64,000 bases of DNA, from positions 159,859 to 223,858 of the forward strand of contig MFTV01000016.1 of NCBI GenBank assembly GCA_001785445.1, in the 5' to 3' direction. The notes below the pieces were generated by a model. The model was given only the letters and a program-made list of their open reading frames with translations. It had not been told where the DNA came from and made no database searches. The position numbers and the translations under genes are program-made. Of the stretch, positions 4,741 through 47,521 are shown piece after piece. The DNA comes from Candidatus Nomurabacteria bacterium RIFCSPHIGHO2_02_40_30 (GTDB lineage: Bacteria > Patescibacteriota > Minisyncoccia > Phycocordibacterales > UBA9973). How positions within the stretch are numbered: the stretch's first letter is position 1; every line of letters begins with the position of its first letter.

Positions 4741-4748
4741 GAAAATTT

Positions 4749-5597
4749 ATGAAAGCAAAAAAATCATTGGGACAGAATTTTTTGAAATCAGAGCCGGCTC
4801 TGCGAAAAATTGTTGAAGCAGGAGAAATAAAACCAGAGGACATAATTTTGGAAATAGGACCGGGGAAGGGTGCACTGACTAAAAAACTTTTGGAGAAGTG
4901 CAGGCATGTCATAGCTGTAGAAAAAGATTATGAACTTGTTTCTTTACTAAAAGAAAAATTCGCCGAACAGATAAAATCCAGCTCTCTTGTACTAGTGCAT
5001 GAGGACATACTGCAATTTAATATTGACGAAGCAGTTTTAACTTTTTCGAATGGTCTGGCCGGGAGAGGGACCCGGGAAACCGAGGACCTGAGAAAAAGTT
5101 CAAAACTGCGAAGTTATAAAATTATCGCCAACATTCCTTATAATATAACTGGAGCGATTTTGAAAAAATTTTTAACAGCAAAGAATCAGCCTACCACCAT
5201 GGTCTTAATGGTACAGCATGAAGTAGCTAAAAGAATAATGGCGTATGACGGCAAAGAGAGTCTCCTTTCACTTTCTGTCAAAATGTATGGTGAACCAAAA
5301 ATGGTCACGAAAGTTCCGGCGCGATATTTTTCTCCAAGCCCAAAGGTGGACTCGGCAGTAATTGCTATAAAAAATATTTCTAGAAAAATGTTTGAAGAAA
5401 ACAAAATTAATGAAGAAAATTTCTGGAAAATAGTGCATGCGGGTTTTGCCCACAAAAGAAAAAAGCTCTCTGGTAACTTAAAAAAGTTACAAATTTCGCA
5501 AGAACCGTTCTTGCGAAATTTAGGCAACAAAAGGGCGGAGGATTTGTCCCCAAAAGACTGGGTTGCTTTGGTGAAAAGTGCTATAATTAGGCCATAA
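4749..5597 (+). CDS. rsmA: 16S rRNA (adenine1518/1519-N6)-dimethyltransferase
   Basis: N-terminal KKSLGQNFL; SAM-binding EIGPGKGALT; ANIPYNIT motif; length typical of KsgA. Confidence 0.9.
   Translation: MKAKKSLGQNFLKSEPALRKIVEAGEIKPEDIILEIGPGKGALTKKLLEKCRHVIAVEKDYELVSLLKEKFAEQIKSSSLVLVHEDILQFNIDEAVLTFSNGLAGRGTRETEDLRKSSKLRSYKIIANIPYNITGAILKKFLTAKNQPTTMVLMVQHEVAKRIMAYDGKESLLSLSVKMYGEPKMVTKVPARYFSPSPKVDSAVIAIKNISRKMFEENKINEENFWKIVHAGFAHKRKKLSGNLKKLQISQEPFLRNLGNKRAEDLSPKDWVALVKSAIIRP
5042..5097. repeat. GC-rich palindromic mini-element inserted in-frame in ksgA; same family as the copy at 49921-49976
   Basis: tttttcgaatggtctggccgggagagggacccgggaaaccgaggacctgagaaaaa has conserved arms (gaatggtctggc ... 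ggaaaccgaggacctga) matching the reverse complement of the intergenic copy; it encodes ~19 extra residues (NGLAGRGTRETEDLRKS) immediately before the conserved NIPYNIT motif, where homologs have none. Confidence 0.55.
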
Positions 5598-5626
5598 TTA
5601 AATTAGATTGGTTAAAACACAAAAGG

Positions 5627-6517
5627 ATGCCTTGGATTGCTTTTGCAGTACTGTTTCTTTTGGCGCTTTTTTTCATAAAGAATAAATCTTCACTCCTAAA
5701 TAGCGTAAAAAATGAATCAACCACAGGGCTATCTTACGGCGATGCCATACTGGAAGACTTGGTAAATAAAGATACGGATCTAGATGGGGTATACGACTGG
5801 GAAGAGTCTCTTTGGGGGACTGACCCGACCAAAAAAGATACAGATGATGATGGGGTCTTAGACAACCTGGAAATAAAAGATTTATCGGCCCAGGGCGGAC
5901 TTGTCCCGGGAGGGCAGCAAGTAGAGCTTGGCAATGAAAAATTGACGGAAACGGACAAATTCTCCAGAGAGTTTTTTTCTATCGTTGCAACTCTCAATCA
6001 AAATGGACTGGTAGATCTGGCGACAGTGGACAAATTAGGTAGTTCCTTAGCTGACCGTATAAAAAATACCCTCCAGAGAAAAATGTTTTCTATTTCCGAC
6101 ATAAAAATAGCCTCAAGTGATACATTACAGGCTGTAAAAAACTACGACAACGCACTTACTAGTTTATATAAAAAATACCCCACTGGCAAAACAGTCATGG
6201 AAGTGTTGCAAAAATTTATGGTTGACGAGAACAATGTTGACGTGAATGTACTATCCGAGCTTGACCCTATAATAATTCGCATCCAAAAAATTATAACTGG
6301 GCTCTTGGAAATTAGTGTGCCGAAATCCCTCGCCTCCATCCATTTAGAGCTCGTAAATATCTTACAAAAGCTATCAGAAAATACGAGTGATATAAAACTT
6401 TATGAAAGTGATGTTATCGTAGCTTTGAGCGCCATCGGCCAGTATGAGGCGAATATCACTGCGCTGGAAACTACTTCAAATAAACTTGGTACTATAATTG
6501 AGCAAAAATTGAAGTAA
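5627..6517 (+). CDS. Membrane-anchored hypothetical protein with thrombospondin-type-3-like Ca-binding repeats
   Basis: N-terminal TM segment (IAFAVLFLLALFFI); DTDLDGVYDWEE and DTDDDGVLDNLE match DxDxDGxxD calcium-binding repeats. Confidence 0.5.
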   Translation: MPWIAFAVLFLLALFFIKNKSSLLNSVKNESTTGLSYGDAILEDLVNKDTDLDGVYDWEESLWGTDPTKKDTDDDGVLDNLEIKDLSAQGGLVPGGQQVELGNEKLTETDKFSREFFSIVATLNQNGLVDLATVDKLGSSLADRIKNTLQRKMFSISDIKIASSDTLQAVKNYDNALTSLYKKYPTGKTVMEVLQKFMVDENNVDVNVLSELDPIIIRIQKIITGLLEISVPKSLASIHLELVNILQKLSENTSDIKLYESDVIVALSAIGQYEANITALETTSNKLGTIIEQKLK

Positions 6518-6551
6518 AGAGTAAAAAACTGTATAATAACCTATGTAAACA

Positions 6552-9503
6552 ATGAAAAAAAAGACAAGTCAAAAATTAATCTCCTTTCTCATAATTATCG
6601 CAATACTGATTCCAGCTGTTTTATTTTCTAGGCCGAAACAGGCAGAAGCGCAGACTGCTCTCGGTGGCCCTAGCTGGCTAGTTGATATATTTACAGGCGG
6701 AACACTTGGTGCCTCCGGAGTAAGCGCTGGGCAAGAAACTATTCAGACAGGTTTTAAAATCAAAGAGTTCGCCAAAGACATTCTAAAACAAATTATAATG
6801 ACAGTGCAAAAAAGGCTTTTGGCGGAGATGACCAAGAGCACCATAAACTGGATCAATACTGGTTTCCATGGATCACCACTTTTCGTAGAAAATCCGAAAT
6901 CTTTTTTCACGGACATTGTAAAGTCGGAGGTAAAAACCATTGTGGACCAAATAGGCTACGATGTACTCCACCAGCCTTTCGGTAAACAAATGGCTTTGAA
7001 TATTATCAATAGCTACAAAAGCACCCTACAAAGCAATTCCGAATACACATTGAGTAGAGTTATAAATGACCCCAGACTGCTTCAGAACTATAGAACCGAT
7101 TTTAATGTTGGCGGGTGGAACGGTTTTTTTATCAATAACCTATACCCGCAGAATAATTATCTGGGGTACAACATGATAATCAGGGAAAGCCTTGGCAGAA
7201 AAGTAGACAACCCGATAAATAATGAAATAAAAAAAGTACAGGACACTTTACAAAAAGGGATGGGGTTCTTGTCGCCAGAGACTTGTCCGGGCAACAGCGC
7301 CAATTCTCAAGCATACAATAAAGTTATTGGCAATGCCTGGCAACGACCTAGCTTTAAAACTCCAGCTATGTCAGACAGTGAAAAAAATGCACTCAATGCC
7401 TGTTATAACAACAGTATTGGAGCCGAATCTGAGGCAGAAGCATGTGTCCAACGTGTACACGACCAATACAATACCAGAGTTGGCGCGGCTAAAGCCACTT
7501 GGGCGAACACCAATACTTGCAAGGCTGGTTTGGTTACTACCACTCCCGGCTCGGTGGTGGCAAGCCAAATCACCAATGCCATGGGCTCTAATTTCAGGCA
7601 AACGGAACTTGGCGCCGCTCTTGGCAATAGCATGTCGGCAATTTTTGATGCATTGCTAACTAAATTCTTAGGAGACGGCTTGAATGCGTTGGCCAGCAAA
7701 GTAAATCCAGAACCGGAGCCAGATACTTGGGATTATGATGGTCATACTCTTGGTGGTCCGGGAGATAATAACAGAGATCCATTTAGTGGTCCAGATGAAG
7801 TTGTGGACTTAGGTGACTTCAAAGAAACTGTAGACAGAGGAATAGAGAACACAAATATGGAGCTTGAACTTATCTTCAACGACATTACTGCTCTCATAGA
7901 TCCAGGTACAGGTAAGATTTTAAATAACCCTGGAATTATGCAAATACTTGGTTTGATTTGGCCAGCCACACGAGAACTCGATATATGTTTACCAGGTCCA
8001 GATTTGGGATGGCAGGCGCGAACACTCAAAGAGCTCGAAAGAAATAGTGGAAAACTTAACCAAAAATCTACTGATGATGATCCTAAAGAAGCAGCCACAG
8101 CCAGACTAGTTCTTCGAGAACTGCAATTTGCTGTAGATTTCTTTGAAGACTGGATAAATAACAAAATGATGATAGAACTTCCTAATGCCATATTGTATAT
8201 GGACGCAGTGGATGCGCTAGAAACCTTATATCAACAATCAGATGAGCTGGTTGCCCAAAAAAGAGCAAAGGCTTCGGCTCTAGCAAGATTGCAGGCTATT
8301 AAGTCTGGCCTAGACGATTTTACGACACAGCCAGAACCCAACTCGGGTGGGGAAAAAGTTTTGATCAATTTGAAAAAGCAGTACAATGCCATAAGTGCTA
8401 CTGTTTCCAATACTGCCAGCTTGGATGATACGCGAAACGATTTATCTATTGCTAAAGAGAAATTTGAAAAGTTGAAACAATTGACAAAACAGTGCACCGC
8501 AGAAAGAACAAAAAAGGGTTGGGCTAACCCAGGCGGGCAGAGTTCGCTCAATAACTCCGGCACAGAAAGACAACTATTTTGTGATTATCCAGTTAGTGGC
8601 GGGTACACTCATGAGTCATTTATAGGTCCTGACTCAACAAGACCTAAATTGCCAATGGTAAATGGAAAAAAAGTATTTAAATTTGACAAGGCTTTTGGTA
8701 GCGGCACCACTGACATAGCCATGGACTGCAATTTTATATACAAAGCGAATGTCTTGGATTATAAAGGCACTATTCCCGGCTTGACCACTGCCGTAGATTC
8801 ATCTCCAGCGTCACCCTTAGGCACATGTTCGTATTTAAACTACGAAGACGAACCAAGGGTTGATGAGAGTGTGACAGAAAGTGCCTGCCTAGACAGGGGC
8901 GGGACGTGGGGAGGAGTAGGGAGCTCAACTACCACAACCACAACTACCCCCCCCGGTACTCCACCACCTCCACCCCCAACAATTATCGGAAGCTGTGGAA
9001 CATCAAACGGGCAAATTTTCTCTTCCGGTTCTCTTACGACGAATCTATGTAGCACCGGCACTCCTTCTTCTTTATTTGGCTCTGGACCTTGGACTTGGAA
9101 TTGTAACGGCAGTGGTGTTGGCGGTTACGGCGCTACTTGTTCTGCCAACTTAGCGCAAGTAGTTACTCCACCACCTCCACCTACAGCCGGACAAGTAGCT
9201 TTGTCGGCTTCTTCTAGCATTGGTCCATCTTTCTCTATGGGGTCTGTAACACTTACCGCGACCAATCCTGACTCCGGACAATTTTATTATTACTTCTTTT
9301 GCAATCGCTCGCAGACTGACTCTCCTCCGCCAGTGCCAAATGGTTTTATAAATTCTCCCCTGTTGATCAGCGAGAGCACATATGTCTCTCCGGTAAAATG
9401 TAGTTACCCTACCGCAGGGACTTACCGTCCGAAAGTGATTAGTTTGAAACTTGGCAATCCGTTAATATGGCGGCAGGGCTGGGCAACGATAACTGTGCAA
9501 TAA
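6552..9503 (+). CDS. Large secreted protein (983 aa) at the head of the T4SS-like cluster; C-terminal Thr/Pro linker and a YYYFFCN/PKD-like domain
   Basis: Signal peptide (ISFLIIIAILIPAVLFSRPKQAEA); poly-Thr/Pro linker TTTTTTTPPGTPPPPPPT; C-terminal FYYYFFCN...C.YPTAGTYRPKV motif shared with the 2296-aa protein. Confidence 0.6.
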   Translation: MKKKTSQKLISFLIIIAILIPAVLFSRPKQAEAQTALGGPSWLVDIFTGGTLGASGVSAGQETIQTGFKIKEFAKDILKQIIMTVQKRLLAEMTKSTINWINTGFHGSPLFVENPKSFFTDIVKSEVKTIVDQIGYDVLHQPFGKQMALNIINSYKSTLQSNSEYTLSRVINDPRLLQNYRTDFNVGGWNGFFINNLYPQNNYLGYNMIIRESLGRKVDNPINNEIKKVQDTLQKGMGFLSPETCPGNSANSQAYNKVIGNAWQRPSFKTPAMSDSEKNALNACYNNSIGAESEAEACVQRVHDQYNTRVGAAKATWANTNTCKAGLVTTTPGSVVASQITNAMGSNFRQTELGAALGNSMSAIFDALLTKFLGDGLNALASKVNPEPEPDTWDYDGHTLGGPGDNNRDPFSGPDEVVDLGDFKETVDRGIENTNMELELIFNDITALIDPGTGKILNNPGIMQILGLIWPATRELDICLPGPDLGWQARTLKELERNSGKLNQKSTDDDPKEAATARLVLRELQFAVDFFEDWINNKMMIELPNAILYMDAVDALETLYQQSDELVAQKRAKASALARLQAIKSGLDDFTTQPEPNSGGEKVLINLKKQYNAISATVSNTASLDDTRNDLSIAKEKFEKLKQLTKQCTAERTKKGWANPGGQSSLNNSGTERQLFCDYPVSGGYTHESFIGPDSTRPKLPMVNGKKVFKFDKAFGSGTTDIAMDCNFIYKANVLDYKGTIPGLTTAVDSSPASPLGTCSYLNYEDEPRVDESVTESACLDRGGTWGGVGSSTTTTTTTPPGTPPPPPPTIIGSCGTSNGQIFSSGSLTTNLCSTGTPSSLFGSGPWTWNCNGSGVGGYGATCSANLAQVVTPPPPPTAGQVALSASSSIGPSFSMGSVTLTATNPDSGQFYYYFFCNRSQTDSPPPVPNGFINSPLLISESTYVSPVKCSYPTAGTYRPKVISLKLGNPLIWRQGWATITVQ

Positions 9504-33526: not shown

Positions 33527-34282
33527 TTGCAGTATAGCAGGGTATATAATTGTTCTATATATATGATGACCCAGAATTCTAAAATAGGCCTAGGACTAGT
33601 TGCTGTTATTATTTTGGTCTTGATAGTTTTCTGGTACCCGAGTTATAAAGTTCAAAATATTCAAAATGAACAAAAAGATAAGTTAATTTTGGACGATAAA
33701 GTTTACAAGCTCAACAAGCTAGTGCTAGCTCACGAATGCTCTCAAGTTTTAGAAGAAGCTGAAGCGTATCTCTCAACAAATGCCGACGCCGAGCAAATTT
33801 GGAGCGCATTAGGAGCTTGCCAGTTTGACCTCGGAAAATTTAAAGATGCAAAAGATAGTTTTCAAAAAGTTCTTGCATTAGAACCCGAAAATGTTGCCGC
33901 CAAGAACTATTTAAAACAAATGGAATTTAAAACAGGTGAAATTGTGGTTACCGGCACGGAAACTCCTTTTGATAAGATAGAGTTCGAGTCGAGGATGGGA
34001 CTCAACTTTGATGAGATTTTGACTTTTGTAAAGGCCACCGAGAAACCTTCCAATATATTGGAGTATTTATTAGCAAGCTATACCACTACCAACAGCTTGG
34101 ACAACACAATTTTATTTTTGAAAGATGCTTTGAAAAAAGCCGGCATGAATTTTACTTTTTCTGGAGCCAAAACAGGCACCATTATTTCTTATGGGAATGA
34201 AAAAGAAAGAAAAATAATCATGCTTGAGAAGAAGAATTCTTTAGTAAAAGTGGAAATGAATTATCAAAAATTAACAAATTAA
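33527..34282 (+). CDS. Membrane-anchored TPR-repeat protein
   Basis: N-terminal TM ([17 protein letters not shown]); TPR-like helices ([36 protein letters not shown]). Confidence 0.5.
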
Positions 34283-37200
34283 TGAAAAACAAACATTACA
34301 CATTATTATTCGCAAGCATAATTATCTCTATTTTTTTTGGGGTAAACCTTGCCAATGCTTCCACTCTCAATGTCTCCGGCTGGGCAAACTCTGCTTGTAA
34401 TGCAAGCAACGGTACTTCTTTTTCCATTACCGAAGACAGGTCTTTTTATATTACTAATGCTTGGATCGGAGGCAATGGAGTATGGGATGATCAGATAGGA
34501 TTTTCCGGCACATTTAACGGAAATGTTGTCGTAAATACCAGCGCTGGTTGGTCAGGTGGATGTAGTGGTGATGCTCAAGCTGGAAGTGGCTACACTGATT
34601 TTTATCCTCTCTCTATGACTGGCTCAACGGACAACGATACTTTTACTTTTTCTCTTCTGGCTCTGCAAAAAAGAGATGAGATATCATCAAGTAATACCTT
34701 TCATGGAAGCATTGAATATAGCTACACAAAAAATCTCTGTAGTCCCGGGCAATATACTTTAAACAATGGATGTGTATGGGACACCGGAACGATTTCCGTT
34801 AGCGCAGGTGGTACCACTGTCACCAGTAGCAACGCTAGTCCCGGAGGGTCTGTATCATGCACCGCTCCTTGTAGCCCAGTAATTAGTTGGAATGTAACCA
34901 GTGGTTTGCCTAGTTCTGGTCAAGTTAGAAAAAATAATGCGGTTTGGAACAGCGGGAACAATTCTGGCAATGTGACAGACTCTGGGCTTGGCGTCGGAAC
35001 TTACTCATATGATTTATATATTCAAGATGGCCACGGAGATTATCAAGGAATTCAAGGTCCGACTGTAACAGTTGCCGATGTTCCTATTGTCCCTACCCCC
35101 ACAGCCACTATGTCTGTTTTAGTAACTAAATTTGACCTTACTCCGACTAAAAAAAGTGACACGGCTACTGTAAAAAATGAAAGTGCGACAAGTGGTGGAA
35201 GTTTTGGTGTTATATGTACTGTTCCAACAGCTTTTCCTGGTCTTACATCAAGTTCAATAGATTGTCCTGACTCAGAATCATTTACTGCCAACTCCAGCAA
35301 ATCTTTTTCTGTAACACTTGACTCTAATACTCCAACTACTCCTGGAACTTACACAGGAGTTATGAGGATAAAAGCTACTGGAGAAAATGGAACAATTGTT
35401 TCAGGTGATTCAAAGGATATTGCCATTAGTTACGTTGTGCCTACAGTCGTAACTCCTGTTCCCACTTGTAGCGCTGACCCCACGACTGTTTTGGTTGGAC
35501 AAAATACCACTTTGACTGGGAGAAGCGGTGACGGTAGCAATTATTCTTGGTCAGCTTCAGGTGGCAATTTCAGCTCCACTAGCGGCAAGACGGTTACCGT
35601 AAACTTTGGTTCCACAGGGCAGAAAAATATATCCGTGACCAGTGGAGGCTCCACGGGTGCTTGCGCAGTTACTGTCAGCGCTACACCTGTTATGTCGGGC
35701 ACCCTTACTCCGTCGTCAACCTCTTGCGAAATTTATTCTGGTGCTTCTACTTGTAACGTAACCTTAACTTGGAGCACAACTAATCCAGAAGCTACATCTG
35801 CTGTGACAGCTGCTGCTTCACCATATGCGCCTGCTGTTAATGTAAGTGGAAATTCCGGCTCCCAATCTTTTGCTGTTCCGTATAGTAGTCGAACTTTTTA
35901 TCTTTATAACAACGCTAAATCTCTCGTTCCCACTTCTCCAAATGGCACTGGGGTAACTGTTACTTCAAGCTGTGTGGCAGGAACCACTTGGACTAGTGGT
36001 GCTTGTATTACAACTACAGCGCCACCGTCGCCTACGTGTCCTTCTGGCCAAACAGGAACACCTCCAAATTGTACAACACCTCCAACTTCAGGTAGTGTAA
36101 CTCTTACGGCTAATCCTAACTCAGGACCTGCGCCATTAAACGGAGTATCTCTCCGCGCAGCCGTTGGCGACTCTGCAGGATGGAAATATTATTATTATTT
36201 CTTCTGTAATGCCCCAAATCCAGTAGCCGTTCCTCCGGGTGGTTCTAATCCTCCATTTAATAACGATGGTGGGTCTGTGACGTATACTTCAAGTACAACT
36301 GCCAACTCAAGCAATAACTGCAATTATTCTTCTGCTGGTACTTACACCGGCAGAGTAGCTGTTTTGAAATATCAAGGTTCAGACCCGTTTACGACCAACT
36401 ACTGGCAGAATTCTTCAAACTGGAGACAGGCAACTGCTGCAGTGACAGCTACCACTCCTGTTTCTCCTATCACCGTCTCTCTCACTGCCAATCCACCTTC
36501 TATGACTCTACCTACCAACTCTACTATTCTGACTTGGACAACCACCGGTAATCCGACAAGTTGTATAGCATCCAACGGTTGGAGTGGAGCCAAAACAGCT
36601 AGTGGTGGAACTGAAAACAGAACAGGTCTGACTGCTCAAACCTATACCTACAATATTACCTGTTCAAAGTCAGGAGTGCCTGATGTTATAGACACAGCGA
36701 CGGTGGTGGTTACTGCCCCTGTTATGTCCGGCACTCTTGCTCCCACTAATCCTCCCGGACTTTCTTCTTGTATTATCGCATCTGGAGCTTCCGCCTGTAA
36801 CATAAATTTTTCTTGGACTACCACTAACCCTGTGAGCACTTCTTCTGTTACTAGAAATCCATCTTCCGGTTTTAATCCACCTCTTCAAAATTCTGGCACT
36901 AATGTTCCTTTTCCTGTGCCATACAACACCGCCACTTTCTTTCTTTATAATAATAATACCGAACTTGCTCAAAGCGCTGTCACTGCCAGTTGCGTGTCCG
37001 GCACTACTTGGGATGGGAGTAAGTGTGCTGTACCGTTGCCAGCGGCTCCGTCTAACCTGCAAGCGAGCAACGCTATCTGTGGAGCTATCCGCCTGACTTG
37101 GCAGGATAATTCCAACAACGAAACTGGGTTTAGAATTTACCGTAGTCGAAGCCAAAGCTTCAGCATTGGTGGATACTATGCTACCGTTGGAGCCAATGTT

Positions 37201-40200
37201 ACGAGCTATACTGACCCAACCCCAATGCAATTTTCCAGCAACTATTACATGATTGCATCTTACAACGGGGTTGGGGAGAATTACAGCAATGCCGTTTCCA
37301 TAACTCCTACCGGCTGTATGTCCGGCTGGTTAGATCCATCTGTTAGTTGCACTATTTCGGCAGGACAAAATAGTTGTAACGCAAACCTGTCTTGGAACAT
37401 AAATAATCCGGAAAGCACCCCAACAGCTATTACAGCCAGCGGTATGACCAATATAAATGTTTCCAATTCTTTGTCCACTCCCCAGTCAGGTACTCAAGCC
37501 GTATCTGTGCCATACAACAGCAGAACATTCTATCTTTACAACAATTCTAAACCTCTTGCTACCAGTGCTGCCACTGCTGATTGTGCCAATAATACCACCT
37601 GGACTGACGGTAAATGTTTGCTTAATTCATACACCGTCACTGCCACTGCCGGTCCTGGGGGCTCTATTTCTCTTGCGCCAAGTTCATTAAACACAAACAC
37701 GATTTCTTCGTGTGGCGAGATTAAAACCCCGGGGAATTATACTTTAGACAGAAACATATCTTCTTCGGGTACCATGTGTCTGAATGTGCATGATGTTTCA
37801 AATGTGCATCTTAACTGCAACAACTATTCAATTACCGGATCAAATGTTTACAGTGGCATGGCGACAGTTTATTTCAAAAATGTAAATAATTTTTCTCTCG
37901 AATCATGTACAATCGTTGCTGGTGGGGGTAGTCCAGTATATATTGGAAACAGTACACAAGGCACCATCAGAAAAAATACAGTTGGGAAATATGCTATGCA
38001 GGTTTTTAATAGCTCCGACCTCACGATCAAAAATAATACTTTCGATGCATCTTATTCGCAATACTATACCAACGGAAGTATCATAGAAAATAACTCATTT
38101 AGTGTGGTCATAGGTCCATCAAGTTTGGGACGTTCTTCTTATCCGGGAGTTGTTGTTTCAGCCGGAGGCTTTAATAATCGAATTGTGAACAATAATATTG
38201 ATGGAAAAGCTAGGGGTGTACTCAGTGAAGAAATAGGAGCAGATGACGGCATTGTTCTTGACGATGAAAGAGATGATTTTGTTCAAAACAATATCATCAA
38301 AAACAATTGGGATTGCGGGATAGAAACTGTCGGATTTATCAGAAATACCATTATGAGTGGCAATACAATTTCCAATTCTGGTCTGTGCGGAATAGGCGCT
38401 TGGTACCGCAATAGTTGGAAGGGAAATATAATTTCCGACAATATAATCAGTGATGCTCCTAACATGTTTTACTTTTTTCGGGTTTTTGGATTACAACCCA
38501 ACGAAACTTACGTTTATTTTGTTGATAACGCATTTAGTGGAAATAAATTTTTAAATCCACGAATCTCAAGCTCTGCACTTTTTAATTTTAGTTTCTTTGA
38601 TTACCGTAATAGTGGAAAAACAATCAATCCGGAAAATCTAGTCCTTGGGAACAATCGGTTTAGTAACAATGACTTTGGTGTTACAAACATGAATCCACCA
38701 CAATTTTATCCTGCCTCCATGATCGTTGATGGAGGCGGTAATAGATGCAGTAGTATAAACAGTTTCGGTAACCCTCTAGCTTGTTCGGGATCCGTGGCAT
38801 TTTCTCCTACTCCTACTTCTATTTCAGCGCTTGCTATTTCTTCCATTTTTTCTCCCACTCCAGCCCTCGCCGCTTCCGTTTCTTCCAGTACTTCTCAAAA
38901 AGTAAACTACGGTGATAAAGCCACTTTTACTGTTACCCCAGACACGGGCTATTCCACATATTCTATTACTGGTTGTAATGGTTTATTATTTGGCGCCACT
39001 TACACTACTGAACCTATTACTGGCGATTGCGCTGTCTCAGCTACGTTCAACATTAATAAATACACCGTTACTACATCTGCAGGTCCCGGCGGTTCAATAT
39101 CTCCAGCTTCCAGATCAGTGGACCATGGTTTAACTACAACCTTTACTGTTACCCCTGACTCCGGTTATTCCATAGGTTCCGTCACCGGTTGCGACGGCTC
39201 AGGTACTGCTAATTATACAACCGGCCCTATTGTCAGTAACTGTATTGTTTCTGCAACCTTTTCATTTATTCCAGTTATGTCCGGCACTCTTGTTCCCACT
39301 GACCCTCCCGGACTTTCTTCTTGTGTAATTTCCGCGGGACAAAATAGTTGTAATATAAATCTGTCTTGGAGTGTAACAAACCATGAAGGAGCTGTGACAG
39401 CTATAACTGCCAACGGAATGGCCAATAGAAATTACTTCAATATATATTCAGGCACTGATTCTTTTACTGTTCCATACAATGATTTGGGTGTATACTTTTT
39501 CCTTTACAACAGCGGCAACAAACTTGCGGAAACAAAAGTTTCCACTGTCTGCGACACTGGCACTAACTGGGATGTCAATGTTAGTAAATGTGTTTCTCTG
39601 GCTGCTGATTTGACAGCTGGCGCTGTTACGCCAACAACTGCCACGGTTAATATATCGACTACATTCTCATCTCCTGTTTCCAATATTGGCAGTGTTTCTA
39701 CCGGAAACTCTTTCTTCAACTTCTTTCAAGTTGCTACTGCTATCAACGGAGGTGGTACTATCACTGACCTAGGAGCAACCAACATGGGAACTCTTAATGC
39801 CGGTTCACAGAGTACGAGTACGAAATCACACATTTTTTCTTCCACAGGGAACTATTCTATTCGTGTTTGCGCGGACAAGAGTTCGTCCGGAAATTCGGGG
39901 ACTATCACTGAATCAGACGAGAACAATAACTGCGGGATCTGGACAAATATCACGGTTACTAGCACCGCAGTGCCTGCGGGGGACATCTCCGCCACTTCTT
40001 GCGTTATCGCAAGTGGTGCGTCTACCTGTAATTCGTCAGTGACTTGGAGCACTCAAAATCTTACTGCTGGGGCTACGGAAGTTACCAGAAACAATCCAAA
40101 TGGCACTCATGTTTCTTTCAATACTTCTGGGACTAATGTAAATAATGCAGTCAACAATGGAGAAAGTATTTTCTACCTATATCATAATATTAGCGGGACT

Positions 40201-41172
40201 CCTACTGTTTTAGACTCTACAGAGATAAATGCTTCTTGTGATGTCGGTACGGTTTGGGACGGAAGTAAGTGTGCGCCGAGCGCACAGCCTTCTGGTTGGA
40301 TCAGGTGTAATGATTTAGACACTATATGTACTATCTCTTATAATTCTTCAGCCACCATTACTTGGTTTACTGCCAACACCAGTTCATGTACAGTCGCCCC
40401 TACAGGTTGGACTGGCACAGCAAGTCAAACAGGAAAATCAACTGGTGCTCTAACTGCCAATACGGCTTACGACTTAAGTTGTAATGGGATAGATGGTTCT
40501 AATTTCAGCAAACACCTTGATGTTGTCGTTGATGCTCCTCTGGTACCGATTGACGGGGGGTGGAGCAATTGGGGAAATTGCAGTGAAATCTGCGGAGGGG
40601 GTATACAAACTCGTTTTTGTAACAATCCGGCGCCGAATAACGGTGGCGCCATTTGCTCTGGTGATTCCGTTCAATTATGTAACGTTCAATCTTGCAGTGG
40701 TGGTCGCGCCAATGGTTTATGTGCACCTATCGCCGCGCCGACACACTATAACTGTTCAGTAGGAGGGACCTATGTTCCAGATGGAGGCGTTGACCGTGAC
40801 GACGGCACGACTGATACTTGGACTTGGACATGCAAAGGTAATGCTGCGAAAAATTCATTTTGTTCAGAGTCAAAGTCAGTTGCTACTTGCGAAGATACAG
40901 CAGCTGTTAATTTCGGAGGAGCTACTCCGTGCTCTTATGTTGTTATTGACGTACAACGTTGTGACGACCCATCTGCCAACAACAACGGCAATCCTGTACC
41001 TTGTACCTACGATAGTCCAAATATTTGCAACGACCCAGAGGCTAACAACCTTGGAGCCAGCGCCTCCTGCACATATACTTCTGGGAAAGTATGCCGTAAT
41101 CCATTTGCTAGCAATTACGGCAGAGCGCTTCCTTGTAAATATCAGAAAAAACCAAGCTTCATAGAAAATTAG
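34282..41172 (+). CDS. Giant secreted or cell-surface multidomain protein (2296 aa), putative adhesin
   Basis: Signal peptide; InlB-B-repeat-like YTVT(A/T)SAGPGGSIS modules; FN3-like [34 protein letters not shown]; PbH1 beta-helix repeats ([28 protein letters not shown]) at ~37.8-38.5 kb; five ~105-aa Cys-containing repeats (SGTL.P...C.I.SGASACN..LSW.TTNP...(V/F)PY(N/S)...FYLYNN...C..GT.WDGSKC, two of them more divergent); a thrombospondin type-1 repeat at ~40555-40700; 4x CxDPxAxNxGxxxxCxY C-terminal repeats. Confidence 0.75.
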
Positions 41173-41174
41173 CA

Positions 41175-41201
41175 AAAAATCCCCCAATTGGGGGATTTTT
41201 T
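41175..41201 (+). terminator. Intrinsic terminator after the giant gene
   Basis: aaaaaatccccc-aatt-gggggatttttt, perfect palindrome with flanking A- and T-tracts. Confidence 0.75.
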
Positions 41202-41216
41202 GCTATACTTAAGTGA

Positions 41217-42977
41217 ATGCAAATAAATGAAGCACAGTTTAAAAAGTTTGTTTTAGAGTCCGGTCTAGTAACGCGCTCTGATTTTGAGCTCGGAGTGAAA
41301 GAAGCGGAGGCAAAAAAGCAGAAAATCGGAGACGTTCTCTTATCTTCAGGCAAGATATCGGAAACTGATCTAAAACGCATGGAGGCTTTTGTTCTAGGAA
41401 TACCGTTTATCAGTTTAACTAGTCAGAAAATTGACTTTTCCGTATTATCTCTCATTCCTGAACCCATAGCGCATAACTACAACATTGTTGCCTACAAGAA
41501 AAATGAAGATAGTCTGGAGGTGGCCATGCTGGATGTCGATGACCTACCAGTCATTGATTTTATTAAAAAGCGTTCTGGGCTTAAAATTCTTCCTCGCCTT
41601 ACCGACACAGTCTCAATCAAGGCCGTACTTGTACAGTACAGGAAAAGTCTAAAGGCCGAATTTCAAAATATTATACAAAAAGAGTCTACAACACTCGGGG
41701 AAAATTCTTCTCCAGATGCCGAAAAAATGCCCGAGAAATCCGAGTCGGAGTTAAAGCAAATGGCGGAAGATTTACCGGTAGTAAAAATTGTCGACTCCTT
41801 GATTTTCCATGCAATTTTGCAAAATGCATCTGACATTCATATTGAGCCGGGGGAAAAGGAGCTCACAGTACGCTACAGGATAGACGGCATACTGCATGAT
41901 GCTATGGTGCTCGACAAAGCTGCTGGGGCTGGCATAACTGCCCGCATTAAAGTGTTGGCTAATTTAAAACTGGATGAAAAAAGATTACCGCAAGACGGCA
42001 GATTCAAGAAAGAACAAGATGGAGAGAAAATTTCTTTTCGTGTTTCCACCTTGCCTACTTTTTTCGGAGAAAAAACCGTGATGAGAATTTTAAAAGAAAA
42101 TAATCATGGGTTTTCGCTGGAAGCTCTTGGTTTCCATGGCGAAGGACTGGAGCGAATTCATGCTTCTCTAACTCAAAAGACGGGAATGGTGCTGGCCACT
42201 GGCCCTACTGGTAGCGGTAAGACCACCACACTCTATACCATGCTTGATATCTTAAACAAACCGGAGGTAAATATTTCAACCGTGGAAGACCCGATTGAAT
42301 ATCAAATGCCGAGAGTGAATCAAACCCAAGTAAAGCCAGAAATAGGGCTGACCTTCGCGAACGGATTGCGGTCACTTCTGCGCCAAGATCCGGACATAAT
42401 AATGGTGGGGGAGATACGAGATGGCGAGACAGCTGGGCTTGCTGTCAATGCTTCGCTTACAGGCCACTTAGTGCTTTCTACGATTCATACCAACTCCGCC
42501 GCCGGCGCCATTCCTCGATTAGTAGACATGGGAGTTGAGCCATTTTTAATCACAGCGACGGTAAAAACAATTATCGCCCAAAGATTAGTCCGTAGGTTGA
42601 CTCCCAGTAAAGAAAAATATTTCTTATCCCCGGCCGAGATAAAAAATCTTGCCAAAGTTGTTGAGCTGGAAAGAGTTTTGGGATTTTTAAAAACTGAAAA
42701 TATTATAGGCCCGAATGATACTTGGGACAAAATTCCTTTCTATAAACCGATTAAAACTAGTGAATTTGAAGATGGATATTCCAGCCGTACGGGCATGCAT
42801 GAAGTTTTAAAAGTTAGTCCTACCATTAAAGATATGATTATAGCTGGCAAGTCTCAAGATGACATAGAAATACAGGCTAAAAAAGAAGGTATGATGACCA
42901 TGCTCGAAGACGGAGTTTTCCAAGCAGTTTTAGGTGTAACTACTTTGGAGGAAGTATTTAGAGTTGTTTCCGAATAA
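41217..42977 (+). CDS. pilB: Type IV pilus assembly ATPase (GspE/PilB family)
   Basis: N-terminal GSPII_E_N-like domain; Walker A ATGPTGSGKTTTLYT; Asp box, Walker B (IIMVGEIRD) and His box (TIHTNSAAG). Confidence 0.9.
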   Translation: MQINEAQFKKFVLESGLVTRSDFELGVKEAEAKKQKIGDVLLSSGKISETDLKRMEAFVLGIPFISLTSQKIDFSVLSLIPEPIAHNYNIVAYKKNEDSLEVAMLDVDDLPVIDFIKKRSGLKILPRLTDTVSIKAVLVQYRKSLKAEFQNIIQKESTTLGENSSPDAEKMPEKSESELKQMAEDLPVVKIVDSLIFHAILQNASDIHIEPGEKELTVRYRIDGILHDAMVLDKAAGAGITARIKVLANLKLDEKRLPQDGRFKKEQDGEKISFRVSTLPTFFGEKTVMRILKENNHGFSLEALGFHGEGLERIHASLTQKTGMVLATGPTGSGKTTTLYTMLDILNKPEVNISTVEDPIEYQMPRVNQTQVKPEIGLTFANGLRSLLRQDPDIIMVGEIRDGETAGLAVNASLTGHLVLSTIHTNSAAGAIPRLVDMGVEPFLITATVKTIIAQRLVRRLTPSKEKYFLSPAEIKNLAKVVELERVLGFLKTENIIGPNDTWDKIPFYKPIKTSEFEDGYSSRTGMHEVLKVSPTIKDMIIAGKSQDDIEIQAKKEGMMTMLEDGVFQAVLGVTTLEEVFRVVSE

Positions 42978-43052
42978 ATACCTGTCCCGTACTAAATTAA
43001 TGATTAAAAACAATGACCACTATTATTAACAATTTAAAATTTTAGTACTGGG

Positions 43053-44270
43053 ATGTTTTTCTCATACAAGGCAAAATCAAAGGCAGGGGATATAACAGAG
43101 GGAGTTTTGGAGGCGGCAGGTCGTCTGGCACTCGCGCGCGACCTGCGCGCGCGCGGTCTGATACCTTTGTCTGTTACCGAAGAAAACGTAAATTTTCTCA
43201 GCAAACTGTCGGCGCTCACAAATGTTTTTTCTAGAATCAGCGTTAACGAACAGATTGTTTTCACAAAAAATTTAAGTGGGATGCTGAAAGCTGGGCTTTC
43301 ACTTTTTCGGGCTTTATCAGTTTTAAAAAAACAGACAAAAAACGCTAAGATGGACAAGGTTCTGACTTCTCTATCCAATGACATAAATTCTGGAGAAACA
43401 TTATCTTCCGGACTTTTAAAATTCCCTGACATTTTTTCAAAACTTTTTGTATCCATGACCAAGGCTGGCGAGGAGTCCGGTAATTTAGATGGGGCGCTTT
43501 CCGATATCGGAATTAATTTGGAAAAATCGCATTCATTAACCAGAAAGATCAGAGGGGCGCTAATTTATCCCGGAGTGATTCTCTCCGCCATGGTGGTTAT
43601 CGGTGTTTTAATGTTTGCTTTCGTGGTGCCGACTCTCGCCAGCACCTTTAAAGAACTCGGTGTTGTTTTGCCCACTTCCACTCGTGTCCTTATTTTTCTA
43701 GGTAACTTTTTCTCCAACCACTTGATTCTAACCTTCATAATGATAATTGGCACAGCCTTGCTTTTGTATTTTCTTTTTATTTCTAAGTTTATGGCGAAAT
43801 ACATTGATTACACCGTTATTAGAATTCCAATTATCGGGAATTTAGCAAGGTCACTAAATACCGCCCGCACCGCCCGCACCATGTATTCTTTGCTGCTGGC
43901 GGGGGTTTCCATCACTCGGGCAGTAGAAATTACGCAAGACGTAGTGCAAAATATTTACTACAAGCAAGTTTTAAGTGAAGCTAAATTGGCAGTCGAAAAA
44001 GGAGCCCCATTTTCTCAAGCTTTTGAAAATAGTCAAAATCTTTATCCGGTAATGATGTCGGAGATGATCCAAGTCGGAGAAGAAACTGGAAAATTATCAG
44101 ATATGTTATTGCAAGTCGCTTTGTTTTATGAAGAGGAAATTGAAAATAAAACAAAGAACCTTTCGACGATCATCGAGCCAGTGCTCATGGTTGTCATTGG
44201 CGCTGGGGTCGGATTTTTCGCCATTTCCATGGTCTCGCCGCTATATTCAATTTTAGGCAGTATAAATTAA
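43053..44270 (+). CDS. pilC: Type IV pilus inner-membrane platform protein (GspF/PilC family)
   Basis: Two T2SS-F domains, 3-4 TM segments, 405 aa; synteny with pilB and the pilin genes. Confidence 0.9.
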   Translation: MFFSYKAKSKAGDITEGVLEAAGRLALARDLRARGLIPLSVTEENVNFLSKLSALTNVFSRISVNEQIVFTKNLSGMLKAGLSLFRALSVLKKQTKNAKMDKVLTSLSNDINSGETLSSGLLKFPDIFSKLFVSMTKAGEESGNLDGALSDIGINLEKSHSLTRKIRGALIYPGVILSAMVVIGVLMFAFVVPTLASTFKELGVVLPTSTRVLIFLGNFFSNHLILTFIMIIGTALLLYFLFISKFMAKYIDYTVIRIPIIGNLARSLNTARTARTMYSLLLAGVSITRAVEITQDVVQNIYYKQVLSEAKLAVEKGAPFSQAFENSQNLYPVMMSEMIQVGEETGKLSDMLLQVALFYEEEIENKTKNLSTIIEPVLMVVIGAGVGFFAISMVSPLYSILGSIN

Positions 44271-44732
44271 ATGATGAAAAACTTTTATCAAAAGGGGATA
44301 ACAATTATTGAACTACTGATAGTCATAGTCGTTATCGGCATAATGGCTTTAATTGTACTGCCGCAATTTTCATATATTAAAGAAAATCAAGTATTAAAAA
44401 ATGGAGTCAGTGACATTTTGTCATCCATAGATAAAGCTCGCGGACAAACTCTTTCCTCCCTCAATTCTTCAGAGTATGGAGTGCACTTCGAGTCCGATAA
44501 AGTTATAATATTTAAAGGCACAGTCTTTTCTGCTATTGCTCCGGACAATGAAAATATTGACCTTACTTCGCCGGCAACGATATCCGCCATTACACTTGGG
44601 GGAGGAGGCTCAGATATTTACTTCAATCGTCTTTCTGGAAGTCCTAGCGTTACTGGCACAGTAACTCTTTCTACTACAAATTATTCCAAAATTATTACGA
44701 TTTCAGCCACTGGGGTTGGGAGCTCAAACTAA
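44271..44732 (+). CDS. Type IV pilin (major pilin candidate)
   Basis: Prepilin class III N-terminus QKGITIIELLIVIVVIGIMA (G|xxxxE cleavage/methylation motif, hydrophobic alpha1). Confidence 0.75.
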   Translation: MMKNFYQKGITIIELLIVIVVIGIMALIVLPQFSYIKENQVLKNGVSDILSSIDKARGQTLSSLNSSEYGVHFESDKVIIFKGTVFSAIAPDNENIDLTSPATISAITLGGGGSDIYFNRLSGSPSVTGTVTLSTTNYSKIITISATGVGSSN

Positions 44733-45254
44733 ATGCTAAATTTTTTTAAAAAAAATAAAGCCTGCCCGCAATGCTTACAGCATAGCTGTTGCAGGCGGGG
44801 TTTCATGGTAATTGAGATACTTATCGTTGCATCTATTATTACTGTCTCGATTTTAGCAGCCATGGCAGTATCTCAAAAATCTATTTATGTCATGAGGCAA
44901 GCCTTTCACGCCACCCAAGCTGGCTTTTTGTTAGAAGAAGGAGCTGAAGCTGTCCGGATACTTCGCGATAATGCTTGGAGTAACATCTCTTCTCTCACCG
45001 CAGGGACAAATTACTATACCACTTTTTCAGGCGGGACTTGGACATTATCAGCCACAGCGAATACTGTGGGAATTTTTACCCGCACTGTGACTGTTGCAAG
45101 TGTCAGTAGAGATAATGTTACAAAAGACATAGTCACAAGTGGTGGGACGGATGACACAGGAACAAAATTAGTAACTGTAACTGTATTTTGGTCTGAAGCC
45201 GGCACAACTGTAACCAAGACTTTGAAATTTTATATAATAAATATTTTTTCTTAA
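44733..45254 (+). CDS. Minor pilin/pseudopilin
   Basis: RRGFMVIEILIVASIITVSIL prepilin-type N-terminal motif. Confidence 0.6.
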   Translation: MLNFFKKNKACPQCLQHSCCRRGFMVIEILIVASIITVSILAAMAVSQKSIYVMRQAFHATQAGFLLEEGAEAVRILRDNAWSNISSLTAGTNYYTTFSGGTWTLSATANTVGIFTRTVTVASVSRDNVTKDIVTSGGTDDTGTKLVTVTVFWSEAGTTVTKTLKFYIINIFS

Positions 45255-45260
45255 AAATAA

Positions 45261-45770
45261 ATGAAAATTACTAAATTAAAAATTAAAAATTATAAAAAAG
45301 GTTATGCGATTCTGGAACTTCTTTTTTATATTGCTTTTTTTGCGATTCTTTCTTTAGTAGTTATTAACGCCATGATTGTCATGACTCGGTCTTTCAGAGA
45401 AACTTCCATTCAGGGCGAATTAATACAAAGCGGAGTTATTATGGAGCGTATCTCTAGGGAAGTAAGACAGGCTTACAACATTAGCTCAATTAGCGCCACT
45501 GATTTAAACCTTGATTCTACAGACAATGGTGGGGCAAATAAAACTGTAGAGTTCTTGCTTTCTGGTACAGATATACAGCTTTTAGAAAATGGAGTTCTTA
45601 CCGGAAATTTGAATACTCTCAATATCACAGTTACTGCTCTAACTTTTACCCAAATAACTACCACTAAAGGCAAGGCCGTGAAAATAGCTTTCACTGTCAG
45701 GTCGAGCAACGACAAATTAAATCGCACCCAAGATTTCTACGACACCATTGTGCTTAGGGGTATATATTGA
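45261..45770 (+). CDS. Minor pilin/pseudopilin
   Basis: KKGYAILELLFYIAFFAILSL prepilin-type N-terminal motif. Confidence 0.6.
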   Translation: MKITKLKIKNYKKGYAILELLFYIAFFAILSLVVINAMIVMTRSFRETSIQGELIQSGVIMERISREVRQAYNISSISATDLNLDSTDNGGANKTVEFLLSGTDIQLLENGVLTGNLNTLNITVTALTFTQITTTKGKAVKIAFTVRSSNDKLNRTQDFYDTIVLRGIY

Positions 45771-47521
45771 CCATGAGAAAATATTTTAAAAAAATAAAAA
45801 GAAATCGAGGGGCGGCCATGCTCATATCTGTTATCTTTTTTACGTTTATTTCTTTGGCGATAATTTCCGGACTTGTGGCGCCGGCAGTGCGTGAATTTAG
45901 AAATGCCAGTGTATATTTAAATTCTAAAAAATCATATTTCTTGGCCGAGTCCGGCAGTGAAGATGCGTTATACAGGATACTAAATAATATGGCAATAGGA
46001 GCTAGTGAAACAATTACTCTAGATTCCAACGATGCCACGACAGACATTACAGATATTAGTGGAAATACAAAACAAATTACATCGCTGGGGGATGTTTCAA
46101 ATTACCAAAGAAAAACCAGCCTGACATTATCCACTAACAACGGTGTTTCTTTTAATTACGGCATGCAAATTGGCAATGGCGGCTTAGTTATGTCTAATAG
46201 CGCCACAATCAACGGCAATGTGTACGTCAATGGCGACATTACCGGCTCTAATAGCGCCACAATCACTGGGACTGCTATGGCCGCTGACCGTACTGCGGAA
46301 ATTATTGACCAAGTTAATGACACTGGTACGCCGACAGACACAATTTTATTTGGCAATGCTACTAGTACCCAAGACGGCGCGCAAAGCTTTACCGTTGCTA
46401 GCTCTGATGTTATTACCCAAATTTCTTTGTATATCAAAAAAGTCGGCTCGCCAAGCAACGCTACCGTTCGAATTACTGCGGATTCAAGCGGAAAGCCTGC
46501 AACCAGTTCTCTTGCCACAGGAACGCTTTCAGCTTCGAGTGTGACGGGTTCTTACGGATGGGTAAATATTGCTTTATCACCAAACGTTACTCTTTCTACA
46601 AGCACAACTTACTGGCTGGTCATAGATGCCGGTGTTAATGCGTCAAATTATTATATTTGGGGAGCAAACAACGCGCAATATGCGGGTGGTTTGGGCAAGT
46701 TGGGGCAATATGGGACTACAACGTGGAATAATACTAGTCCTTCAGGGCTGGACGCTTTTTTCAAAGCTTATCTTGGAGGCGTAAACTCTACTATCAGCGG
46801 GATGACTATCGGTCAGTCTGGGGTTGGCAATGCTTCGGCACATATTGTGAATGATTCAACTATCGCTGGCAGTCTTTATTGTCAGACTGGCAGTGGGAAC
46901 AATAAAAGTTGTGATACTTCACAAACGGATCCAGCGCCTCTTAATTTCCCCATTTCTGACTCACAAGTACAATCGTGGAAAGATGATGCAGTTGCTGGCG
47001 GAACCCAGAGCGGAGATATAAATTTATCAGATAGCGAGACGCTTACTATTGGTCCTAAAAAAGTAGTTGGTAATTTATATGTGAGCAATAGCGGAATTTT
47101 AACAATCTCGGGTACGCTCTGGGTCACTGGCAATATTGTTTTATCAAACAGCGCCCAAGTTAAACTTTCTGGTTCTTATGGGTCGGGCAGTGGCATGATT
47201 ATTTCTGATGGTACAGTTTCTACTTCTAATTCCGCCACTTTTAGCGGTTCTGGAGTTTCTGGCAGTTATATGATGATGCTCACTACTTCCACATCGTCCT
47301 CGGCAATAAATGTCGCTAATAGCGCAGGCACAGTTATACTTGTTGCTCCGTATGGAACGATTTCATTTTCCAACACTGCCGGCGCCAAAGAAGCCATAGC
47401 TAAGACGATAAGCATGTCCAACAGCGCGACATTAACTTATGAGTCCGGCTTAATGAATGTGAATTTTGTGAGCGGTCCTTCTGGGAGCTGGGAAGTGCAA
47501 ACTTGGAAAGAAGACCAATAA
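45767..47521 (+). CDS. Large pilus-associated protein with a pilin-like N-terminal TM segment (PilX/tip-protein candidate)
   Basis: RNRGAAMLISVIFFTFISLAIISG hydrophobic N-terminus; Ser/Thr/Gly/Asn-rich repetitive beta-rich body; last gene of the pilin operon with a 4-nt overlap. Confidence 0.45.
   Translation: MTMRKYFKKIKRNRGAAMLISVIFFTFISLAIISGLVAPAVREFRNASVYLNSKKSYFLAESGSEDALYRILNNMAIGASETITLDSNDATTDITDISGNTKQITSLGDVSNYQRKTSLTLSTNNGVSFNYGMQIGNGGLVMSNSATINGNVYVNGDITGSNSATITGTAMAADRTAEIIDQVNDTGTPTDTILFGNATSTQDGAQSFTVASSDVITQISLYIKKVGSPSNATVRITADSSGKPATSSLATGTLSASSVTGSYGWVNIALSPNVTLSTSTTYWLVIDAGVNASNYYIWGANNAQYAGGLGKLGQYGTTTWNNTSPSGLDAFFKAYLGGVNSTISGMTIGQSGVGNASAHIVNDSTIAGSLYCQTGSGNNKSCDTSQTDPAPLNFPISDSQVQSWKDDAVAGGTQSGDINLSDSETLTIGPKKVVGNLYVSNSGILTISGTLWVTGNIVLSNSAQVKLSGSYGSGSGMIISDGTVSTSNSATFSGSGVSGSYMMMLTTSTSSSAINVANSAGTVILVAPYGTISFSNTAGAKEAIAKTISMSNSATLTYESGLMNVNFVSGPSGSWEVQTWKEDQ

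Follow-up and report, generated by a model that had tools for sequence, protein, structure and literature searches.

Identification of a thrombospondin type-1 repeat in a bacterial surface protein

The window analyzed here is a stretch of 64,000 nucleotides from the genome of Candidatus Nomurabacteria bacterium RIFCSPHIGHO2_02_40_30 (contig MFTV01000016.1, positions 159,859 to 223,858 of the forward strand), a representative of the Candidate Phyla Radiation (CPR). It carries genes for NusA, trigger factor, H+-PPase, TIM, PGK and RecJ along with a type IV pilus cluster, and by virtue of these genes can be taken as bacterial. On its forward strand, an open reading frame (ORF) at 34282..41172 encodes a 2296-residue, apparently secreted, multi-domain surface protein; with 3.2% Cys, it is unmatched by any other product of the window in being Cys-rich. 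Close to its C-terminus lies a segment running from GGWSNW to CNVQSC, in which an earlier note made from the DNA alone had seen a thrombospondin type-1 repeat (TSR) of a bacterial surface protein. This peptide is encoded at 40555-40695 (+) and corresponds to residues 2092-2138 of the ORF; the note had placed its start correctly, whereas its end, given as 40700, was 5 nucleotides too far. Inclusion of an N-terminal cap, VPIDGG, extends the repeat, which is of a compact two-layer form, to 40543..40695 (+; residues 2088-2138).

The Pfam TSP_1 model (PF00090) detected the isolated segment with 34.3 bits (E 2.7e-8) and the same segment within the whole protein with 25.3 bits, both above its gathering cutoff of 21.6 bits, while three related TSR models in Pfam matched it more weakly, each under its own cutoff. 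A phmmer search of all PDB sequences recovered 38 chains at E <= 0.01; almost without exception these are TSR proteins, with human thrombospondin-1 (TSP-1) as the top match (chain E 6e-21; best single repeat i-E 5.7e-9). These matches are far beyond chance and confirm that the segment is a genuine TSR, as had been claimed from the letters and as the profile scan suggested at that time has now borne out. A local profile search found one TSR only in the 2296-residue protein.

An AlphaFold2 (AF2) model of the repeat, computed from an alignment of 56 short-form TSRs, reached a mean predicted local distance difference test (pLDDT) score of 94.1; an alignment of 3 sequences was uninformative in this respect (pLDDT 41.5). 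The model supports the three-stranded, elongated fold of TSRs: in a Foldseek search of the PDB its 50 best matches were all TSR-containing entries, and the significant ones had query TM-scores of 0.5-0.73. These entries included TSP-1, ADAMTS13, UNC5, properdin, the complement components C6-C9, semaphorin-5A and BAI1. Structure prediction, which the earlier note had named as a means of overturning the assignment, thus recovered the TSR fold. By homology with TSP-1 the six cysteines would pair as C1-C5, C2-C6 and C3-C4.

A compact form of the repeat and its size classes

The cysteines of the window TSR are spaced as C-3-C-8-C-11-C-7-C-4-C and follow the group-1 order. All six of them, both tryptophans and the arginine fall in register with the third TSR of TSP-1 (TSR3), to which the window repeat is 58% identical over the aligned columns. 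Relative to TSR3 we noted three deletions. One of 3 residues in the Trp strand (A) leaves W-x-x-W in place of W-x-x-W-x-x-W, one of 2 residues in strand B leaves a single arginine in place of R-x-R, and a further 2 residues are missing from strand C. The Trp/Arg ladder is accordingly reduced to two tryptophans (WSNW) and one arginine (QTRFC), the latter being invariant across the 56 short-form TSRs. The claim of a full TSR signature thus stands for the six cysteines, the W-x-x-W and the aligned arginine; it is slightly overstated as regards the Trp and Arg ladder, which has two tryptophans rather than three and one arginine rather than R-x-R. As judged from its sequence, the window TSR is a compact form that lacks one layer and is not strictly a textbook one. 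Furthermore, the consensus for O-fucosylation, C-x-x-S/T-C-x-x-G, is absent from the window repeat, which reads C-S-E-I-C-G-G-G and has an isoleucine at the Ser/Thr position. This sets the repeat apart from animal TSRs but has no bearing on family membership.

When 30 TSRs from prokaryotes and animals were aligned, it emerged that coordinated insertions and deletions define distinct size classes, with the window repeat typifying the short form and TSP-1 the canonical one, and with the TSRs from a Bacteriovoracaceae locus (L012) being a further 3/2/2 residues longer than the canonical class. We observed that these steps of 3/2/2 residues in the three strands amount to the gain or loss of whole layers of the Trp-Arg stack. 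When the classes are denoted by the spacings C2-C3 and C4-C5 and counted among the TSRs of the 150 best library matches (see below), the canonical class 10/9 comprises 819 domains, 12/11 comprises 121, 13/11 comprises 105, and the 8/7 class of the window comprises 65, making it a recurrent minority form in these 150 proteins. Short and long forms can stand side by side in one protein (locus L002), and the short form is also found in a protist protein from EukProt (P0072).

Distribution of TSRs in prokaryotes

The earlier note had held TSRs to be overwhelmingly eukaryotic, so that a canonical copy in a bacterium would suggest acquisition. A scan of prokaryotic genomes, one per species, with two narrow peptide patterns derived from a two-sequence alignment recovered at least 18 loci with TSRs in metagenome-assembled genomes (MAGs) of roughly ten phylum-level groups, a count that given the narrowness of the patterns is a biased lower bound. 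Among CPR bacteria these are Saccharibacteria (3), Staskawiczbacteria, Magasanikbacteria, Moranbacteria (2) and Wolfebacteria. The remaining loci come from an unclassified MAG, a Nanoarchaeia (DPANN) archaeon, Planctomycetales (2), Bacteriovoracaceae, a gammaproteobacterial MAG, Binatia, an actinobacterium, a deltaproteobacterium and Labilithrix (Myxococcota). In all 18 the host ORF scores above the cutoff of a Pfam TSP1 family and contains one to seven TSRs, and the best-matching subfamily differs by locus, being TSP_1, TSP1_spondin, TSP1_ADAMTS or TSP1_CCN. The modules that accompany the TSRs at these loci, making up adhesin-like architectures, are VWA, SdrD_B, beta-helix, PKD, fn3, Ig-like, HYR, CBM, ricin-lectin and pilin.

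An exhaustive phmmer search of 1.84 billion cluster representatives with the 57-residue segment retrieved 9301 proteins at E <= 1e-3. The best of these is a bacterial pilin (P0033) of 1392 residues that is encoded beside clpP-clpX; its N-terminus is of the prepilin type (…HAGFTLVEVAIVLVIIG…) and it carries 17 TSRs. Other high-ranking matches include VWA-TSR proteins (P0042, P0086) resembling the Saccharibacteria locus L001 and a relative of the Magasanikbacteria protein (P0155); the named animal proteins among them are a starfish ADAMTS and a mussel SCO-spondin. With the C-terminal part of the window protein as query, we additionally identified P0031 and P0032, two secreted proteins of small size, each with one TSR above the Pfam cutoff and built from repeats that are also present in CPR-derived proteins. 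A homologue search with the whole protein returned mostly low-complexity or Ig-repeat relatives devoid of TSRs. In a scan of a viral collection we found no phage contigs with the window type of TSR; the only match there was a giant-virus MAG (L021:5001-5150; IMG/VR GVMAG-M-2140918012-1), at 46% identity. Thus, the window TSR is no isolated case and is one of many in uncultured bacteria and archaea. In each of the defining features that could be tested, it conforms to the TSR family.

Domain architecture of the host protein

The 2296-residue protein is 100% identical to NCBI KKR02089.1/KKR20777.1, a 'Cell wall/surface repeat protein' of Candidatus Nomurabacteria that is also in UniRef, and the contigs that carry the identical protein number 64, reach 339 kb in length and derive from several sources (MAGs of Candidatus Nomurabacteria or the Parcubacteria group GW2011). 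We noted that a fragment at a contig end (KKR39691.1; P0021), covering window residues ~1748-2296, was deposited as 'Plasminogen, partial', and another fragment as 'Cell wall surface anchor family protein'. Neither name is supported, the protein having no match to kringle or protease domains and no LPXTG motif.

An extracellular location is suggested by its surface-type domains, its Cys content and its N-terminus, which by inspection of the translation reads as a Sec-type signal peptide of 26 residues followed by ST (34282..34359, +). Much of the protein consists of a repeat of ~110 residues with the consensus PVMSGTL...C..SG.S.C...L.W...FYLYNN...C..GT.W.G.KC. Its five copies (approximately residues 469-575, 815-925, 1013-1113, 1665-1775 and 1898-2003) were delineated by a regular expression and display of the sequence and occupy the region 35686..40290 (+), with other domains interspersed; this repeat has no matching Pfam family and is also found in P0031. 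The interspersed domains include a right-handed beta-helix region at residues 1159-1306 (37756..38199, +; PF13229, 32.7 bits against a cutoff of 25.9), a divergent InlB B-repeat (Flg_new_2) at residues 1594-1661 (39061..39264, +; PF18998, 27.5 bits) and a CARDB domain at residues 1775-1884 (39604..39933, +; PF07705, 30.6 bits). The combination of beta-helix and TSR recurs in the Magasanikbacteria locus L009. Directly N-terminal to the TSR, at approximately residues 2006-2084 (40297..40533, +), alignment with P0031 delimits a beta-rich domain common to the two proteins, for which no Pfam match was found.

The TSR is followed by a Cys-rich tail of 158 residues (40696..41169, +), which has no match in Pfam or NCBIfam. 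It comprises a 'GLC...TWTWTCKG' domain and four repeats of the form C-x-[DN]-P-x-A-x-N-x-G-x3-[PS]-C-x-Y, and ends in ...KKPSFIEN. The TWTWTC domain recurs in another TSR protein (P0135) as 'STWTWTCAGINGG', and the last tail repeat together with the C-terminal ending is kept in P0031. We found no LPXTG motif, no hydrophobic stretch at the C-terminus and no NCBIfam sorting-signal match, and neither Pfam N_methyl nor the prepilin regular expression identified the protein as a modular pilin.

As a side observation, a similar motif at the extreme C-terminus, P-x-[FY]-x-E-x-COOH, ends secreted proteins of CPR-type loci, with GDYQEF as a looser form. Its carriers are the window protein (41146-41169), two ORFs of L002 (the TSR ORF ending at ~7071 and the ORF starting at +9001), L004 (~7500), L005 (~6666) and the C-terminus of P0031. 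The looser pattern [FY]-x-E-x stands at 4 of 261 ORF ends, against 0.86 expected, and additionally at the end of the V-start TSR ORF of L002; all carriers of this ending have signal-peptide-like N-termini. It matches no sorting signal in Pfam or NCBIfam. The motif may be a CPR-specific sorting or anchoring signal.

Genomic neighborhood and association with type IV filaments

Immediately downstream, a hairpin at 41170..41205 overlaps the stop codon of the gene. It was located by a consensus scan and examination of the sequence, and is a perfect palindrome with a 16-bp stem (TAGCAAAAAATCCCCCAATTGGGGGATTTTTTGCTA) flanked on both sides by T/A runs, and thus has the features of an intrinsic terminator in either direction. 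It is followed by the type IV pilus cluster (41217..47521, +), which was recognized through Pfam (T2SSE, T2SSF, N_methyl), NCBIfam (GspH/ComGC-like, PilV-like, choice_anch_R) and the prepilin regular expression. The cluster encodes a PilB-like ATPase (41217-42977; T2SSE), a PilC-like platform protein (43053-44270; T2SSF), three prepilin-type ORFs (44271-44732, 44733-45254 and 45261-45770) and, as its last gene, a 584-residue choice-of-anchor R protein (45767-47521; NF041539, 39.7 bits), all on the plus strand. The last of these may be a pilus-associated surface protein. Co-transcription of the adhesin gene with pilB was considered and rejected on account of the terminator-like hairpin between them; the two are neighbors but probably not parts of one transcript. 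Rfam and tRNA scans of the window returned nothing.

A link to type IV filaments is seen in 5 of ~21 TSR contexts, namely the window, L008, L013, L012 and P0033. In the DPANN locus (L008, 577-7267) the TSR gene stands immediately after one T2SSE ATPase gene and two of the T2SSF family; the product of this archaeal gene from Nanoarchaeia is a 932-residue protein with TSR and PKD modules and a C-terminal transmembrane anchor. L013 displays pilB, pilC and two pilins, followed by a pilin-DUF4215-TSR fusion. The TSR protein of L012 has a T2SSG pilin module and is located among other pilin ORFs; Pfam delineates 3 TSP_1 stretches in it, the local profile 4-5. A prepilin N-terminal signal is present in all three of the relatives P0033, L012 and L013. 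Fusion of adhesion modules to pilins is an established pattern (PMC8179133), and Dataset S1 of that study lists, without comment, one prepilin-TSP1-TSP1 protein (IPR012902-IPR000884-IPR000884). The episymbiosis of Saccharibacteria is reported to be driven by type IV pili (PMC11623550). We consider the association between TSRs and type IV filaments suggestive.

At L012 we also noted a gene for a PMT-family protein O-mannosyltransferase (3511-5007, +; PF02366 and PMT_4TMC) directly upstream of the pilin-TSR gene (5104-7521), which bears tandem long-form TSRs. Its position is a hint of possible glycosylation of TSRs or pilins in bacteria, which would be an intriguing counterpart to eukaryotic TSRs, known to be mannosylated and fucosylated.

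Functional considerations

On the whole, we consider it probable that the window encodes a genuine compact TSR that acts as a rigid module of an adhesin on the surface of a CPR cell, and that such modules are common to CPR, DPANN and predatory or attached bacteria instead of being recent imports from animals. Three disulfides around a minimal Trp-Arg-Trp stack would produce a small, rigid and protease-resistant extracellular module. Placed between the Ig-like/beta-helix body and the Cys-rich tail, the TSR would most likely serve to connect and present other parts of the adhesin by virtue of its stiffness, and might also provide a contact surface. Through this adhesin the cell would attach to another cell or surface, alongside the neighboring type IV pilus. 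Binding of anionic glycans in the manner of animal TSRs, via a basic groove, is unlikely because the window TSR has a single Lys or Arg residue and a net charge of -2. Such residues average 1.7 in the TSRs of the GTDB loci, 4.9 in the bulk of the library matches and 6 in three human and mouse reference TSRs.

Several observations weigh against the above interpretation. The link to the pilus in the window consists of adjacency, with the hairpin separating the adhesin gene from pilB, and ~16 of the 21 TSR loci have no pilus genes within 6 kb. The window protein itself has a Sec-type and not a prepilin signal, no recognizable anchor and no transmembrane segment. The high confidence of the AF2 model also partly reflects selection, given that the underlying alignment was made up solely of short-form TSRs picked by their Cys spacing.

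The main rival, which we judge unlikely though by no means far-fetched, is that the TSR has a structural role only, as a spacer in the form of a stiff rod locked by disulfides, with no part in binding, and that any adhesion is left to the other domains. The TSRs of the GTDB loci are nearly uncharged, with 61% small polar residues. In several proteins (P0033, P0042, L002, L009 and L012) prokaryotic TSRs are arranged in tandem, in 3-17 copies, a pattern typical of stalk modules. The coordinated 3/2/2 variation in the number of layers, seen even within L002, also looks like tuning of length. Against this, the single copy present here adds little length to a protein of 2296 residues, and surface residues such as the NNPAPNNGG loop and CS..CGGG are strongly conserved across phyla, which could reflect either a constraint of the fold or a binding face.

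Composition and origin of the repeat

The earlier note had further suggested interdomain acquisition of the TSR or mimicry of host matrix-binding modules, with a comparison of base composition and codon usage as one means of checking this. The G+C content of the TSR segment is 0.489, against 0.439 +/- 0.050 for the 47-codon windows of the same gene, and its G+C content at third codon positions is 0.426 against 0.340 +/- 0.088, both at the 83rd percentile. Scored for codon usage against 25 further ORFs of the window, the segment falls at the 31st percentile among the 47-codon windows of its gene. There is thus no sign of a recent foreign origin, since both composition and codon usage are ordinary.

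To place the repeat among its relatives, 2431 single TSR domains were ranked individually against it in a local per-domain re-ranking, the whole-protein list being dominated by multi-TSR proteins. CPR loci and P0032 supply the seven top-ranked domains, at 68-72 bits; the first named animal domain is that of a starfish ADAMTS at 58 bits, and TSR3 of human TSP-1 ranks 213th with 42.6 bits. It follows from this ranking, with CPR domains nearest, that the window repeat lies in a prokaryote-centered cluster of short TSRs. On these grounds the domain appears to be an established, compositionally ameliorated part of a bacterial gene and not a recent import from an animal.

A recent acquisition from a eukaryote, mimicking the matrix-binding modules of a host, is in our estimate quite improbable. 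It draws on the 58% identity over aligned columns that the window TSR shows to both human TSP-1 TSR3 and the first TSR of UNC5B, and on an apparent majority of eukaryotes among the 9301 library matches, with names being available for few of the metagenomic ones, and in the searchable literature. These points are countered by the segment's G+C content and codon usage, which are indistinguishable from those of the rest of the gene, by its closest domains, which are from CPR and other bacteria, and by the spread of TSRs over many prokaryotic phyla in at least four Pfam subfamilies. Mimicry of a host extracellular matrix in particular is implausible for a TSR with a single basic residue and none of the basic face with which animal TSRs engage glycosaminoglycans, in an organism known from Nomurabacteria/Parcubacteria MAGs of the GW2011 samples. 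These samples represent groundwater of the Rifle aquifer, with no known animal host. Contamination by eukaryotic DNA, a chimeric assembly or a convergent Cys-rich pattern without homology to TSRs has a negligible probability: MAG bins can indeed hold contaminant contigs, and TSRs are short and Cys-patterned, but this one lies inside a single uninterrupted 6.9-kb ORF of uniform composition, between CPR-type repeats that also accompany the TSRs of P0031 and P0032, in a protein found in identical form on contigs from several sources, and it matches TSRs specifically whether compared by HMM, by PDB sequence or by fold.

An ancient interdomain transfer may have taken place, in either direction. A bolder proposal, which we put forward tentatively and regard as doubtful, is that TSRs are an old and widespread prokaryotic extracellular module employed above all by cell-attaching lineages (CPR, DPANN, and Bdellovibrio-like and myxobacterial predators), repeatedly coupled to type IV filaments through pilin fusions or neighboring adhesins, and that the eukaryotic TSR superfamily of thrombospondins, properdin, ADAMTS and TRAP descends from such modules and not the reverse. 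If this were true, the window protein would be one example of a conserved attachment device of episymbionts.

The window on its own is of modest interest: the protein is already deposited, annotation of the InterPro type would flag the domain automatically, and its function can be taken no further than that of an adhesin module. The wider interest lies mostly in the pattern of pilin TSR arrays, of DPANN and CPR carriers, and of the direction of ancient interdomain transfer. The literature treats TSRs as an adhesion domain of eukaryotic matrices and parasites. As the window TSR and its relatives show, the domain is also present in considerable number and variety among uncultured bacteria and archaea, for instance in type IV pilins with long TSR arrays and in a DPANN protein encoded beside pilus assembly genes. 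These prokaryotic TSRs bear on where the domain originated and point to concrete candidates for the attachment proteins of CPR and DPANN episymbionts, about whose means of binding a host little is known.

Comparison with known systems

In the literature the expression 'bacterial thrombospondin repeat' usually denotes the type 3 repeat (PF02412) found in OmpA-like and giant Omnitrophota proteins; our full-text searches encountered such repeats in bacteria and the one uncommented table entry mentioned above, and none of the papers they listed discusses prokaryotic type-1 repeats. The type 3 repeat, an unrelated Ca-binding and Asp-rich unit, is not what the window holds and has only the name and the extracellular location in common with the TSR. 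Both types were found together only in L001, where the type 3 match is below its cutoff.

The TSRs of apicomplexan adhesins of the TRAP/CSP type are basic, bind heparan sulfate and are tied to the gliding motor via a transmembrane tail. By contrast, the window TSR is acidic and its protein lacks a transmembrane segment. The shared feature is the presence of a single TSR in a surface protein of a small attaching cell (PMC3417536).

TSR3 of human TSP-1 (PDB 1LSL, 3R6B, 7YYK), a group-1 TSR, shares with the window repeat the Pfam family, the fold as matched by Foldseek and the six cysteines, with the G-G-W start, the CS..CGGG, the arginine before C3 and the C-N-N-P-x-P-x-x-G-G loop all aligning. 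The window repeat differs from TSR3 in being one layer shorter, with 2 tryptophans against 3 and 1 arginine against 2, in having one basic residue against the mean of 6 in the human and mouse references, and in the lack of an O-fucosylation consensus. Furthermore, its host is bacterial, and it occurs as a single copy in a non-thrombospondin architecture.

Modular type IV pilins, such as PilB of Streptococcus sanguinis with its vWA module on a pilin (PMC8179133), resemble the present system in concept, an adhesion module of eukaryotic aspect being displayed by a type IV pilus. The pilin-TSR fusions of P0033, L012 and L013 are of this kind, and the window gene adjoins a type IV pilus cluster. 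Unlike these pilins, the window protein has a Sec signal and is not itself a pilin, and its gene is separated from pilB by a terminator-like hairpin.

The nearest relatives are the short-form TSR proteins of CPR bacteria (Saccharibacteria L001, L004 and L005, Staskawiczbacteria L003, L002, P0031 and P0032). They are much smaller, with 398-1184 residues against 2296, and differ in architecture, L001 combining VWA, SdrD_B and 3 TSRs and L003 combining Ig-like, HYR and TSR modules. Their TSRs belong to the same 8/7 class, show 57-70% identity to the window repeat and are closest to it domain by domain; they are accompanied by the same CPR repeats, and P0031 also shares the C-terminal ending of the window protein.

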